Positions 3,250-62,460 of a DNA stretch of 64,000 bases are shown here, in pieces. Under the pieces are notes generated by a model. The model saw only the letters and a list, made by a program, of their open reading frames with translations, did not search any database and had not been told where the DNA came from. Position 1 is the stretch's first letter, and each line of letters opens with the position of its first letter. The DNA comes from Planctomycetota bacterium. Lineage in GTDB: Bacteria; Planctomycetota; SZUA-567; H5-PLA8. The stretch covers positions 18,104-82,103 of the forward strand of contig DASXUX010000022.1 in the NCBI GenBank assembly GCA_036504595.1, given 5' to 3'. A program made the translations under genes and the position numbers.

Positions 3250-3280
3250 CGAAAGTCTGGAGTCTGGAGTCCTGGCGCTT

Positions 3281-3964
3281 TCACTTGCCTGTGCCGCCAA
3301 ACAGCGCCGCCTCGATCCCGGGGATGATGACTTTCTCGCAGCCTGTCGCACTGGGATGAATTCCGTCCGGCACCCACGCGTCGAACGTCTTCTTGTCTTT
3401 GTCCAATAGCGCCTTCCACACAGGATAGTGATCGATCAGCAGCAGCTTCCGCTCCGCTGCGACATCACGGTAAACTTGGTAGTACTCCTCGATCTTAGGC
3501 CGGCGCTCCAGATGCACGTTGATCGGCGGATTCATCGTCATCAATATTACCTGGCACTCGGGCCGCGCCTTCAAAATGCGGTCGATCATGTTCTCAAGGT
3601 TTTTGCGGCAATCAGCGGTTGACGTTTTGTACTCAAGGAACGCGTCGTTAATCGCGAATTCGATGAACACCGCGTCGGGTGCTTTTTCAATGACCCGCTT
3701 GTCGAGGTTCTTCACGCCCCAGTCGGACCACATCGCGCTTTGGCCGCTGTTGGTGACGGTGGCGAGTCCCGGATACTTCTTTTCGAGCAAGCTCTTAAGC
3801 TGCCCTACCCACGCTCCGCCCGCCGTCAGACTGGTTCCGTAGGTGACGACGTGCTGCTTCTTGCCCGCCGTCAGATTCTGCACCAGCTTCGGCGTCTCAG
3901 CCGCCATAAGCGCGATGCTCAGCAGGATACACAGCGAAAGGATGCCAGCGGGTTTCGCGCTCAT
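3281..3964 (-). CDS. SGNH/GDSL-family hydrolase (lipase/esterase-like), secreted
   Basis: GTSLT (Ser block), GQSAMW, and a DGIHP catalytic His block. Signal peptide present. Confidence 0.8.
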   Translation of the reverse strand: MSAKPAGILSLCILLSIALMAAETPKLVQNLTAGKKQHVVTYGTSLTAGGAWVGQLKSLLEKKYPGLATVTNSGQSAMWSDWGVKNLDKRVIEKAPDAVFIEFAINDAFLEYKTSTADCRKNLENMIDRILKARPECQVILMTMNPPINVHLERRPKIEEYYQVYRDVAAERKLLLIDHYPVWKALLDKDKKTFDAWVPDGIHPSATGCEKVIIPGIEAALFGGTGK

Positions 3965-4002
3965 TAGTCTCCGTGTCCTCTGTGAGCTTTGTGGTAAGTC
4001 GG

Positions 4003-4641
4003 TTATGATTCTGAAGTGGTATCTTCTTGAACCGCGCGCCAGAGTTCCAGGTACTTCGCGCGAACGTAAGGGTTAAGCTTTTGCGCGAAATCGTCTCCCA
4101 AGCTTAGCGCACGGATAAGCTCCTGCACGTCGGCGAGATCCTTCAAGCGTCCGCTCGCAGTCATTCCCGAGGCCAATTTCAACTCGACGAGTTGATCGAT
4201 CCGCAGACACGCTATGTCCTCAATGCGCGTGCTGGCTTGAGCCGGATCGGGAAATGCGACGGGCTTCGGCTTGCCGTCCCCAGGATAGCCGCCGGTAACG
4301 ATGAATTCGACTCGCACGCCCGTCTCGGTGTCGCGCAGGTTCTTGCTGGCGGGAAACGGCGGAACGTAACCCAGCCCTTCCAGCTTCTCGTGAATCTCTT
4401 TCAACCCTTCCGGCGTCACCAGCACATCCACATCCACGGTCGTGCGCTCATACCCATGGGCAACCAGCGCCATGCCGCCGCAAATCGCATAAGGGATTCC
4501 AAGCGCATCGAGGCGTTGCGTCAGGCGCTTAAGTGTGCGGTGTACGGGATCGTCTTTCATGAAGAACCGGCACGCCTCCTCCAGCGCTGCCGCGCCGCCT
4601 CGCCGCATCTTCTCTTCGAAAGCTTCCATAGGCAACTCCAC
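4003..4641 (-). CDS. nucleotidyltransferase-fold (Pol-beta superfamily, minimal NTase) protein
   Basis: The GGMALVAHGY...TTVDVDVLV motif matches the hG[GS]x...DxD NTase signature. SD GGAG lies 8 nt upstream. Confidence 0.5.
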   Translation of the reverse strand: MELPMEAFEEKMRRGGAAALEEACRFFMKDDPVHRTLKRLTQRLDALGIPYAICGGMALVAHGYERTTVDVDVLVTPEGLKEIHEKLEGLGYVPPFPASKNLRDTETGVRVEFIVTGGYPGDGKPKPVAFPDPAQASTRIEDIACLRIDQLVELKLASGMTASGRLKDLADVQELIRALSLGDDFAQKLNPYVRAKYLELWRAVQEDTTSES

Positions 4642-4734
4642 TTCGCGCGCTTAGTCTATTCCTGCCAATTCAAAAGTCCATCGTGCGGCGGAGGCTGAAA
4701 CCGAGATAACACCAATCTTCTGCCGCAAAGAACT

Positions 4735-61224: not shown

Positions 61225-61274
61225 GGAAATTGCGGGATGCGGATTGCGGATTGCGGAATACGGAGAAGTCCCCG

Positions 61275-62342
61275 GTGAACACGAGCGTGCGCCGTCTCTT
61301 GTTGAGTTGGCTCGGTGTGCTGGCCATGATCTGTGGCAGCCTGACCGCGGGTGAGCCGCAGAAATTCCAGGCGTACGCTCTGATCGTTGCTGGCGAAGGA
61401 AGCGAGCCGAACTTCAGTGAAAACTACCGCGACTGGGTGGTGCGCCTTCACAAATTGCTGACGACTGATTGCGGAATTTCAGCGGGGAACGTGCGCGTAT
61501 TGATGGAGAAAAAAGAACTGGCGCCGGAGATCGTCAGCGACGTCAGCACCAAAGCGAACGTGATCAAAACCTTTGGTGATCTGAAGACCAAAGTCAAACC
61601 GGGCGACCAGTTCCTGCTGGTATTCATCGGGCACGGCACGGCTCAGAGCAAGACCGGCAAGCTCTGCCTGCCGGGGCCTGACCTCACCAGCGACGAGACG
61701 GCTGAACTGCTGCGGCAACTGCCCAATCGCGAGGTCGTGTTCATCAACAGCGCCTGCGCATCGTACAGCTTTGTAGATAAATGCAGCCTGCCGGGGCGAG
61801 TGATCATTACCGCAACCAACAGCAGCGCCGAAGGAAACGAAACGTATTTCATGGAGTTCTTGCTGAAGGCGTTTGAGAATCGCGCGGCCGACGCCGACAA
61901 GAATGGGACCGTCGATCTGCTGGAGGCATTCAACTACGCCGCGACGGAGTGCCCAAAATGGTATCTGCGGCAGTATCTGGAGGACACCGGCTGGCGCATT
62001 GAAGGGAAGCAGTCGCGCCAGCTTTGGCAGAAGTTTTATGGCAACGTGAAGGACAAGGCCATGGCCGACCCGCTCGACGCAAATGCGGAGGATGCCGAAC
62101 CGCAGCTCGGCGAGTGGGGTCCGCACTGGCAGGGCCGCCGCATGCCGGCCGAACACGCGCAGCTCGACGACAACGGCGATCGCCAGGGCTCAGCCGTCTT
62201 CGCCAATAATCAGTTCACTCCGCTGGCCGGCAGTGAAGAAAAAGCCGACGGATTCCACGCCAGGAAAGTAATTCTAGGCAAGCCGCAAGGGAACACTGAG
62301 CCGCCTCCGGCGCCGTTGGAGAAAGCAGAAAAGAATCCGTAG
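61275..62342 (+). CDS. secreted legumain/GPI-transamidase-like (peptidase C13) protein with a canonical EF-hand loop
   Basis: GTG start with SD GGAGAAG. Catalytic-dyad-like VFIGHG(T) and FINSACASYSF. EF-hand loop DADKNGTVDLLE. Confidence 0.55.
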   Translation: MNTSVRRLLLSWLGVLAMICGSLTAGEPQKFQAYALIVAGEGSEPNFSENYRDWVVRLHKLLTTDCGISAGNVRVLMEKKELAPEIVSDVSTKANVIKTFGDLKTKVKPGDQFLLVFIGHGTAQSKTGKLCLPGPDLTSDETAELLRQLPNREVVFINSACASYSFVDKCSLPGRVIITATNSSAEGNETYFMEFLLKAFENRAADADKNGTVDLLEAFNYAATECPKWYLRQYLEDTGWRIEGKQSRQLWQKFYGNVKDKAMADPLDANAEDAEPQLGEWGPHWQGRRMPAEHAQLDDNGDRQGSAVFANNQFTPLAGSEEKADGFHARKVILGKPQGNTEPPPAPLEKAEKNP

Positions 62343-62350
62343 TTTTGTCA

Positions 62351-62460
62351 CCACAGAGACGCTGAGACGCAGAGAACAGCAGAGCAGATGAACAAGAAGT
62401 CTACCCCAATTCTTCCCTCCCTCTGTGTCCTCTGTGTCCTCTGCGTCCTCTGTGGTGAGC
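62351..62460. promoter_or_regulatory. inverted repeat (CACAGAG ... CTCTGTG) enclosing the RBS and start codon of the BNR gene
   Basis: ccacagagacgctgagacgcagagaacagcagag – ATG – ... cctctgtgtcctctgtgtcctctgcgtcctctgtgg. The 9-mer repeats encode CVLCVLCVLC in the signal peptide. Confidence 0.7.

Follow-up and report, generated by a model that had tools for sequence, protein, structure and literature searches.

Tandem heptamer arrays and heptamer hairpins at gene 3' ends in an uncultured lineage of Planctomycetota

Introduction

Intergenic tandem heptamers are reported to be the commonest non-coding tandem repeat in prokaryotes and come without a clear clue to function (SPADE survey, PMC6344855). 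Short tandemly repeated repetitive (STRR) heptanucleotides were described in Calothrix in 1990 (Mazel et al., as cited in PMC4692102), and heptanucleotides were later found to be the most abundant class of long simple sequence repeats (SSRs) in prokaryotes, with polymerase slippage proposed as their source (Mrazek et al. 2007, as summarised in PMC4679880 and PMC4692102). In Xanthomonas, arrays of GGGAATC typically comprise about four units, are intergenic and form 70-75 inverted pairs on opposite strands (Rehm et al. 2015, PMC4692102). They are strongly biased to positions within 50 bp of a stop codon or overlapping it, 7-8% of them lie between divergent open reading frames (ORFs), they are transcribed and their length differs between related species (PMC4692102). 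Geobacter metallireducens carries four or five tandem 7- or 8-nt units at many intergenic sites, mostly as opposite-strand pairs at variable distance (Aklujkar et al. 2009, PMC2700814). Here we describe arrays of this kind in the spacers of a 64,000-nt stretch of DNA from a Planctomycetota bacterium (GenBank assembly GCA_036504595.1, contig DASXUX010000022.1, forward-strand positions 18,104 to 82,103), referred to as the window; positions are those of the window unless another record is named.

Based on our observations, we propose that these are slippage-grown heptamer arrays of the known repeat class, tolerated at gene 3' ends and in part arranged as hairpins resembling repetitive extragenic palindromic (REP) elements, a reading that we consider probable though far from certain. 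The phenomenon has already been described in other bacteria and is not a new kind of system. In the literature that we covered, which is incomplete, heptamer arrays are described neither for Planctomycetota nor for Verrucomicrobiota. The nearest relatives retrieved by scans of genomes and metagenome contigs and by protein search are only 63-69% identical in protein, apart from one fragment at 81%, so the source is an isolated lineage of the Planctomycetes-Verrucomicrobia-Chlamydiae (PVC) group.

Materials and methods

Arrays were detected with Tandem Repeats Finder (TRF) and by direct reading of the sequence. The chance test was run on 33 spacer segments (7,140 nt), delimited by gene calls based on G+C at third codon positions (GC3) with three hand corrections; an array in that test has at least three units and at most two mismatches. 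The window is part of Joint Genome Institute (JGI) metagenome contig Ga0376481_000107 (229,906 bp, sample 3300035523), whose JGI gene calls were used for the table of spacers and positions. The catalogue comprises 19 array loci of the window, and a GGGTGAG array at 33096-33119 is kept outside the 19. Evidence on turnover comes from two genomes, L040 and L048, with 88-92% DNA identity (about 89%), which represent another array-rich PVC lineage.

Results

The excess of intergenic tandem heptamers is real and far above chance. The window, with a G+C content of about 0.61, yields 28 period-7 TRF rows at a score of at least 30 and 18 at a score of at least 36. Its spacers hold 15 period-7 arrays, whereas 200 dinucleotide-preserving shuffles average 0.03 and never exceed 2. 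In the same spacer set there are three arrays of period 8 (0.00 by shuffling) and none of period 6 or of periods 9-12 in the 7,140 nt. Coding DNA (56.9 kb) contains five period-7 arrays, that is 0.09 per kb versus 2.1 per kb in spacers. Autocorrelation has its maxima at lags 7, 14 and 21 in spacer DNA and at multiples of 3 in coding DNA, in agreement with the 7-bp periodicity claimed in an earlier note on this DNA. With 7-nt units repeated head to tail three or more times, over-represented and non-coding, the arrays have all the properties of long SSRs. As singletons, the unit heptamers occur at about their Markov expectation in this DNA. Since they are not scattered above expectation, each array is a local amplification, and dispersed binding motifs, which should be enriched as single copies, were rejected. 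Blocks of identical neighbouring variant units at 21599-21654 (TCCTGCC twice, CACTGGC twice and CACTGCC four times) point to recent local duplication.

The earlier note had filled the spacers with tandem heptamer arrays, and TRF finds arrays at or within nearly all the places it named, as does direct reading. Its coordinates are mostly right, but periods and extents need amendment at several sites. The repeat at 47391-47433 is not a heptamer array; its period is 8 (CGACTTCT, 4.6 copies). Neither is 62351-62460, with a left arm of period 8 and a right arm of period 9 (CCTCTGTGT, 3.9 copies). At 22616-22668 the periodic part is confined to 22648-22667 (TTTTTAC, 2.9 copies) and does not extend over the remainder of the interval, while 7181-7270 is an irregular mixture of 7- and 8-nt steps and not a clean heptamer array. 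The array at 21607-21659 is genuine, but its unit is CCACTGC with two CCACTGG variants and not CCACTGG throughout. Arrays missing from that list were found at 8711-8757 (AGGAGGC), 24273-24312, 25313-25336, 30618-30636 and 33096-33119.

The excess continues beyond the window, where the earlier claim might have failed: the 18 kb of the same contig outside it carry 11 further period-7 TRF rows, including a tandemly duplicated inverted module. In this module (L164 18985-19207) a whole inverted unit of 112 nt, with GTGACGN and TCACNCG arms, is repeated in tandem at about 95% identity, in the manner of bacterial interspersed mosaic elements (BIMEs). In 1.95 Mb of loci taken from other, mainly PVC, genomes, period 7 (91 rows) outnumbers every other period that is not a multiple of three, with 31 rows of period 8 and 39 of period 10. 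The density is 0.47 period-7 rows per 10 kb there versus 2.8 per 10 kb in the window. A minority of lineages is similarly array-rich: a Phycisphaerales metagenome-assembled genome (MAG; L003), two Isosphaeraceae-like MAGs (L040 and L048), an Opitutaceae (L006), other Verrucomicrobiota (L033, L047 and L067) and several metagenome contigs. These lineages likewise show inverted pairs, with different units. Two relatives at 68-69% protein identity have mainly REP-like palindromes and few heptamers in the same operon spacers. As the source is a metagenome contig, the arrays could in principle have been produced by short-read assembly. However, they are shorter than a read, are placed exactly between intact genes and occur in many independent assemblies from other projects, and an independent Logan assembly is identical to the window; the probability of an artefact is close to nil.

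Where do the arrays lie with respect to genes? Arrays occupy 18 of the 37 spacers of at least 30 nt: 13 of 23 co-directional, 3 of 6 convergent and 2 of 8 divergent. Spacers with a gene 3' end hold arrays in 16 of 29 cases, compared with 2 of 8 for divergent spacers; taken by itself, this depletion does not reach significance in a sample of such size. Of the 13 arrays in co-directional spacers, 12 are closer to the upstream stop than to the downstream start and one is a tie (sign test, p about 0.0005). The stop lies 0-14 nt from the array or inside it in 12 of these 13; for the array at 30618 the distance is 79 nt. Whenever the spacer is long enough to offer a choice (18272-18418, 22521-22668, 24169-24326, 25251-25346 and 62343-62597), the array sits at the stop end. 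In other genomes 13 of 16 arrays are nearer the stop, although starts taken from longest ORFs bias against such a result, and the arrays divide into 25 co-directional, 12 convergent, 4 divergent (of 41 spacer arrays) and 7 coding. Both the proximity to stop codons and the depletion from divergent spacers that characterize the Xanthomonas arrays are therefore found here. The array at 8711-8757 differs from the stop-anchored ones and is an iterated Shine-Dalgarno-like purine tract.

In several operons a single hairpin fills the spacer from stop to start (51873-51970 and 58859-58953), and the sugar ABC transporter operon at 22669-28039 has a different array in each of four spacers, one of them just downstream of the last gene. 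The spacer between the MoxR and DUF58 genes, filled by the first of these hairpins, ranges from -20 to +383 nt across 67 genomes and is often a 4-nt overlap; genomes with arrays in it are those in which it is expanded. An array as a conserved operon requirement was rejected because many other genomes lack this spacer.

The longest intergenic inverted repeats of the window are themselves heptamer arrays, with arms of 18-48 nt that are 71-95% complementary, separated by 22-93 nt of DNA whose centre is weakly palindromic. Seven inverted pairs are clear (16528/16641, 18274/18321, 26348/26417, 28117/28178, 51877/51932, 58868/58920 and 62354/62420) and three are weaker (24273, 25275/25313 and 47361/47395), so that the inverted arms and long hairpins claimed in the earlier note have been recovered among the 19 loci. 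Roughly 40% of the array loci are inverted pairs, built around a centre of 20-45 nt, and about ten arrays are direct only. Hairpin folding amounts to -22 to -59 kcal/mol (z -3.1 to -7.3), with both strands about equal; in this genome five hairpins favour the sense strand, four the antisense and one neither. Several direct-only arrays have no significant fold (z about 0 at 21591-21659, 50146-50195 and 61225-61280). The hairpins are imperfect extragenic palindromes, as REP and BIME elements are.

Canonical intrinsic terminators were rejected as an explanation, since no array has a short (3-8-nt) loop or a T tail. Terminator-like sites are not enriched (24 versus 19.9 +/- 4.6, and 29 versus 25.8 +/- 6.2, in shuffles), and none in the window corresponds to a complete array hairpin. 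Two weak hits lie within array coordinates, at 16592-16609 (centre of 16528-16670) and at 62336-62357 (edge of 62348-62458). The earlier opinion that the arrays are not independent terminators thus holds for canonical intrinsic ones, but the anchoring at 3' ends leaves room for a role at RNA 3' ends. The arrays match no Rfam family, a c-di-AMP riboswitch being the sole Rfam match in the window.

It is conceivable that the arrays are selected RNA elements, i.e. U-tract-independent terminators, attenuators or 3'-end stabilisers that are kept by function and not by mutation pressure. The stems are very stable (z down to -7.3), the arrays lie within 0-14 nt of stop codons, and another 3'-end device would have its use where canonical terminators are no commoner than expected by chance. 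Moreover, the hairpins at 24255-24326 and 25275-25346 form in sense RNA alone, where G-U pairs give them an advantage of 9-11 kcal/mol over the antisense strand; a heptamer hairpin of L048 is replaced by a different, GTAG-type hairpin in the same spacer of L040; and in Xanthomonas the starts or stops of transcripts are more frequent at such repeats than at control sites (PMC4692102). However, about ten direct-only arrays without a fold (z about 0) still abut stops, the sense strand has no overall folding advantage, many genomes lack the same operon spacer or have a 4-nt overlap in its place, the arms drift independently between close relatives, and the strong hairpin at 28117-28208 lies between divergent genes. 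We regard selection of RNA elements as possible, but do not expect it to be the principal explanation. Mutational origin and function are in any case compatible for such arrays and not mutually exclusive.

Comparison of L040 with L048 shows how spacers of this kind evolve. Orthologous arrays of the two genomes differ by insertion or deletion of exact 7-nt units in one arm, with the opposite arm, the centre and both flanks remaining alignable. The copy number of the AAATYTC unit differs as well (7.3 against 5.6). In one spacer a heptamer hairpin of L048 corresponds to an unrelated GTAG-type palindrome in L040. At about 9 of 11 alignment breaks that we examined, one genome has a whole hairpin module of 80-170 nt (-50 to -87 kcal/mol) that the other lacks or has replaced, and the edges are clean (e.g. 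L040 11423-11521, 13604-13715, 14070-14209, 15686-15797 and 16588-16669; L048 1857-1937, 6197-6363 and 11126-11253). In two of these modules the same ends, GGGGTCAGG...CCTGACCCC, enclose heptamer-like arms, and one module is a REP of the GTAG type. Unit-wise slippage is shown in this related pair; for the genome of the window it is inferred from it. The pair suggests a very active population of spacer hairpins in its lineage, and heptamer hairpins are one kind among the long-stem spacer hairpins of PVC genomes, a wider population with fast turnover.

Presence and absence with clean edges also invites a different explanation, that of mobile hairpins copied by a transposase, akin to REPs, to REP doublets forming hairpins (REPINs) or to miniature inverted-repeat transposable elements (MITEs), with the heptamer periodicity a family property. 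In addition to the modules of L040 and L048, two of them with the common ends just described, units are shared by unlinked spacers (GAGTCTG at three loci; CCAAGAG, GGT(S)TCTGGT and ATTGCGG at two each), 7229-7272 and 58859-58895 are similar beyond the unit, the 112-nt module of L164 is duplicated in tandem, and GTAG REPs are known from the PVC group (PMC3733652). The window hairpins, however, have no common terminal motif, GTAG/CGTC tag or target duplication, most units are restricted to one spacer, and the copies of a 'family' vary in unit order and number. No transposase, and no REP-associated tyrosine transposase (RAYT, Y1), is found among the Pfam-annotated genes of the 84 kb, and the direct-only arrays are left unaccounted for. 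Flanking direct repeats, as expected of MITEs, were seen neither at the window hairpins, for which this genome provides no empty site, nor at the L040/L048 presence/absence sites, where no target duplication is visible. Mobility of this kind appears unlikely to us as the source of the arrays.

Four unit families recur at unlinked spacers, in line with the recurring families proposed in the earlier note: GAGTCTG (3254, 50150 and L164 14329), CCAAGAG (41109 and 51877-51966), GGT(S)TCTGGT (7229 and 58868-58952) and ATTGCGG (30618 and 61229). Coincident unit pairs number about 6, as against about 0.3 expected under a uniform draw from some 1,170 classes, and the units AATCCGC, AAATCCG and AATGATG are found across phyla. 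Single-linkage clustering of the units at no more than one mismatch was uninformative, nearly everything being chained together. Variation within arrays is concentrated at one position of the unit (mean maximum share 0.63 versus 0.48). A unit of six fixed bases and one free base as the signature of an enzyme was nevertheless rejected, since duplication of variant units confounds the statistic and arrays at other loci have one to three variable positions.

Could the 7-nt step be that of a protein? The arrays might be bound by a protein whose contacts with nucleic acid advance in steps of 7 nt, such as a cold-shock-type single-strand binder or a regulator of heptad direct repeats. The register is strict over unrelated units, one position varies while six are fixed (the 0.63 versus 0.48 above), and the units recurring across phyla would fit. 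According to a review (PMC4679880), CspB binds heptamer repeats, one protein per unit, and a partner protein has been speculated for the Nostoc heptamer repeats (10.1101/2022.06.06.494920). However, no single sequence-specific protein fits dozens of unrelated units, single unit copies are not enriched, the single-position statistic carries the confounding just mentioned and no candidate gene was found; we judge a protein platform highly unlikely. Repeats forming G-quadruplexes, as proposed for Xanthomonas and Nostoc, are a still more remote prospect. Canonical motifs are present at 28123-28146 and 33096-33120, but four G3 tracts occur in only 1 of the 19 loci (28117-28208) and in the additional GGGTGAG array at 33096-33119, and GAGTCTG, CCAAGAG, TAGTTCT, AATGATG, ATCGAAA and TTTTTAC have no G3 tracts at all. 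As most units do not form the motif, the G-quadruplex was rejected as a general explanation. The 19 loci are listed in Table 1.

Table 1. Array loci of the window and the riboswitch beside one of them
Position	Unit and arrangement	Setting	Detection, fold and remarks
3254..3275	GAGTCTG, about 3 copies, direct	fills 31-nt convergent spacer 3250-3280; 4 and 5 nt from the two stops	TRF
7181..7272	GGT(S)TCTGGT, irregular 7/8-nt, direct	between two minus-strand genes; ends 1 nt from stop of 7274-8023	TRF periods 8 and 15; weak fold, z -2.2
8711..8757	AGGAGGC, 6.6 copies, purine-rich	divergent spacer; overlaps start of gene 8743-10170	TRF
16528..16670	inverted pair ATCGAAA / TTCGGAT	left arm overlaps end of ORF 14987-16570	RNA fold -55.9 kcal/mol; z -3.6 plus strand, -4.9 minus strand
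18274..18340	inverted pair TAGTTCT / AGAACTG	2 nt past stop of 16679-18271; 78 nt ahead of next start	-22.3 kcal/mol, z -5.1
21599..21659	CCACTGC, 8 copies, direct	fills spacer 21591-21659; abuts stop of 21660-22520	TRF score 80; no significant fold, z 0.1
22648..22667	TTTTTAC, 2.9 copies, direct	1 nt from stop of 22669-24168	
24273..24312	ACAAAGA, 2.3 copies, then TCTTCGCG, 3 copies		folds as minus (sense) RNA only, via G-U pairs; hairpin 24255-24326, -27.1 kcal/mol sense vs -17.8 antisense
25275..25336	ACTCAGC, 3.4 copies, with short CCCTGAA partner, 2 copies	stop of 25347-26330 10 nt away	hairpin on minus (sense) strand only; 25275-25346, -29.9 kcal/mol sense vs -18.7 antisense
26348..26447	inverted pair AATGATG / CATCATT	between ABC ATPase and permease genes; stop of 26429-28039 inside one arm	-44.7 kcal/mol, z -5.9
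28117..28208	inverted pair GGTATCG / CCCATAC	divergent spacer	-48.6 kcal/mol, z -5.4; sole one of the 19 loci with canonical G-quadruplex motif (28123-28146)
30618..30636	CAATCCG, 2.7 copies, direct	79 nt past stop; 43 nt upstream of c-di-AMP riboswitch	
30679..30822 (+)	c-di-AMP (ydaO-type) riboswitch	5' leader of Band_7/SPFH-domain gene (30954-33047)	81.8 bits vs gathering score 38
41109..41167	C-N-AAGAG, 8 copies, direct	convergent spacer 41087-41178	TRF score 69-75
47361..47431	CGACTTCT, 4.6 copies, period 8, with degenerate inverted arm	convergent spacer	TRF periods 8 and 16; z -3.1
50150..50190	GAGTCTG, 5.6 copies, direct	fills 50-nt spacer between MoxR-like ATPase gene 49153-50145 and DUF4272 gene	z 0.5, no fold
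51877..51966	inverted pair N-GCTCTT / C-N-AAGAG	fills MoxR-DUF58 spacer; 4 nt from stop, 4 nt from start	arms 93% complementary; -54.6 kcal/mol, z -5.3
58859..58952	inverted pair GGT(S)TCTGGT / ACCAGAC(C)	fills spacer 58859-58953; next gene start 58954	-52.9 kcal/mol, z -6.3
61225..61264	ATTGCGG, 4-5 copies, direct	begins directly after stop at 61224; within annotated 5' end of ORF 61191-62342	
62348..62458	inverted pair, 8-nt-unit left arm (CAGAGACG), 9-nt-unit right arm (CCTCTGTGT)	5 nt past stop at 62342; next gene at 62598	-54.4 kcal/mol, z -7.3

The arrays also bear on gene annotation. The longest-ORF starts of 5915-7258, 58867-61224, 61191-62342 and 62343-63998 run through arrays, in place of which the JGI gene calls begin at 7159, 58954 and 62598. 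The annotated start of 61191-62342 lies within the previous gene, with the ATTGCGG array read as coding sequence; the true start is probably further downstream. Arrays thus account for over-extended starts or ends of annotated ORFs such as 5915-7258, 58867-61224 and 61191-62342. Within the gene at 55010-58858 (a 1,282-aa ORF), repeats at 58328-58399 comprise an 8-mer (GACGGGGA, 4.2 copies) and a 7-mer (GGAGGCA, 4.4 copies), periods that are not multiples of three, in a strongly purine-skewed stretch (AT skew 0.34-0.49) that also holds 15- and 36-nt repeats. They may represent a low-complexity C-terminal region, or the ORF may have been extended recently into a former spacer.

Several further elements were seen in the spacers. 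A second hairpin family has copies at 22578-22612 and 33085-33125, both in spacers adjoining gene 3' ends, and reads CCCCTYCCC(T)C-CGAG-GGGARGGGG followed by GGGGTTAGG(GGTGAGGGG); in the copy at 33085-33125 TRF calls the GGGTGAG heptamer array, and a G-quadruplex motif is present. At 33048-33067 (minus strand) a single-unit inverted CAATCCG/ATTGCGG copy (CGCAATCC-GGGA-GGATTGCG) is followed by a T-rich tail and ranks among the best terminator-like sites; it may represent the seed from which arrays such as those at 30618 and 61229 develop. Two non-coding gaps, 20548-21305 (758 nt) and L164 13875-14764 (890 nt, about 2 kb left of the window), are partly homologous. Each contains three copies of CTGTAAAAAAGTGCACATGTG (in the window at 20717, 20826 and 21118), and both share a block of about 70 nt, AAGACAGAGTnnCCAACCC...TGACG...TTGCA (window 21181-21250); in L164 13875-14764 a different heptamer array follows each CTGTAAAAAAGTGCACATGTG copy. 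The two gaps may be copies of one locus, either regulatory or for a non-coding RNA. An origin of replication at the minimum of GC skew (near 48-50 kb) was rejected, as there is no DnaA-box cluster and the skew changes gradually.

Discussion

Why should tandem heptamers accumulate just after stop codons? We propose that each array arises by local amplification of its own unit, with a few of 8-9 nt, and would grow or shrink one unit at a time through slipped-strand mispairing or unequal exchange in a 7-nt register. Arrays would persist just after stop codons, where spacer DNA is expected to be least constrained as it carries no promoter or ribosome-binding information, and would be rare where both ends of the spacer carry promoters. 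A stem made of periodic arms should still pair after one arm has gained or lost a unit, giving a slippage-tolerant hairpin, and this is possibly why inverted pairs are common and long. The hairpins would be transcribed as 3'-untranslated or intercistronic RNA, and we infer that they would most likely act in a REP-like manner at RNA 3' ends, either as barriers to 3'-exonucleases or as partial terminators. By bringing the stop and the next start close together, an inserted stem might do little harm to a coupled operon. A common generating process in a 7-nt register, the first of the mechanisms put forward in the earlier note, is borne out by the 7-nt insertions and deletions between L040 and L048, the identical neighbouring units and the local nature of the amplification. 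The same cannot be said of the alternative offered there, a repeat-seeding enzyme: nothing in the 84 kb indicates one, and the variation at a single unit position is suggestive only, as duplication of variant units gives the same pattern.

A number of observations weigh against slippage-grown, tolerated arrays as the full account. Simple slippage does not account for the presence of periods 7 and 8 with 6 and 9 missing, nor for inverted pairs at about 40% of loci, and the occurrence of the same units at unlinked spacers and in other phyla goes beyond it. The anchoring to stop codons fits a neutral 'least-constrained site' and a functional 3'-end element equally well. No unit-number variation was seen in the genome of the window, whose sole second assembly (Logan L163 and L165) is 100% identical to it and probably derives from the same reads. 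With regard to the REP-like part of the proposal, no consistent preference for folding of the sense strand through G-U pairs was found in this genome or at other loci.

A more specific scheme can be imagined, in which the arrays would follow a self-organising route to REP-like 3'-end elements: a seed beside a stop, amplification in 7-nt steps, inverted copying and a slip-tolerant stem, the register being set by a specific shared step. The register and the single free position (C-N-AAGAG, N-GCTCTT) would then reflect a particular molecular event and not generic slippage, one that would be common to PVC bacteria, cyanobacteria, xanthomonads and Geobacter. The footprint of an enzyme of replication (a polymerase) or of repair might be envisaged, as might template jumping in which six bases are copied and one is added. 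We offer this scheme as speculation and consider it quite unlikely.

How do slippage-grown arrays of this type compare with the systems described in other bacteria? The closest parallel is Xanthomonas, with which the window shares tandem heptamers, inverted pairs, bias to stop codons and scarcity between divergent genes. However, Xanthomonas is a gammaproteobacterium with one dominant G-rich unit that has been read as G-quadruplex-forming, whereas this planctomycetote has about 15 unrelated units, mostly without G tracts; four or more G3 tracts, as in the Xanthomonas-type arrays, are not found in general. The presence of several intergenic heptanucleotide families in one genome recalls the cyanobacterial STRR sequences and the heptamers of Nostoc and Microcystis. 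The STRR units CCCCAGT, TTGGTCA and CAACAGT, as well as TAACTGA and GGGGATT, do not occur in tandem here on either strand or in any rotation, and the host is not cyanobacterial: an identical protein at NCBI comes from a 'Planctomycetota bacterium' MAG, and the best relatives are Planctomycetota or PVC MAGs. Inverted pairing is reported to be rare in Nostoc (PMC4692102) but is frequent here, and the TAACTGA arrays of Beggiatoaceae lie just upstream of start codons (PMC4679880), whereas those described here follow stops.

As in prokaryotic long SSRs at large, 7 is the dominant non-coding tandem period, but unlike in the genome-survey statistics half of all spacers are occupied and the hairpin arrangement is prominent. 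Geobacter also has tandem 7- or 8-nt units in opposite-strand pairs; its few fixed consensus families, of 15-49 copies each, have been read as regulator sites (PMC2700814), whereas the units here are mostly private to one spacer. With REP, BIME and REPIN elements the arrays have in common stable extragenic hairpins near stops, between co-transcribed or convergent genes, the occurrence of tandem modules and a fast turnover. REPs, however, are many copies of one 20-40-nt consensus with a GTAG/CGTC tag and are mobilised by RAYTs, whereas the arms of the present hairpins are internally periodic, differ by locus and have no common consensus, tag or shared terminal tetranucleotide.

With our observations the known carriers of heptamer arrays come to include an uncultured lineage of Planctomycetota, along with several others of the PVC group, and a related genome pair shows 7-nt unit insertions and deletions together with wholesale replacement of spacer hairpins. 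What sets the window apart is its host phylum, its many unrelated units without a bias to G and its high fraction of hairpins. As the features described for Xanthomonas hold with many unrelated units that are not G-rich, they belong to the repeat class, and the G-quadruplex cannot be the general explanation. The window is thus a counter-example to the G-quadruplex interpretation and a clean case in which to ask, as has been asked since 1990, why the period is 7.

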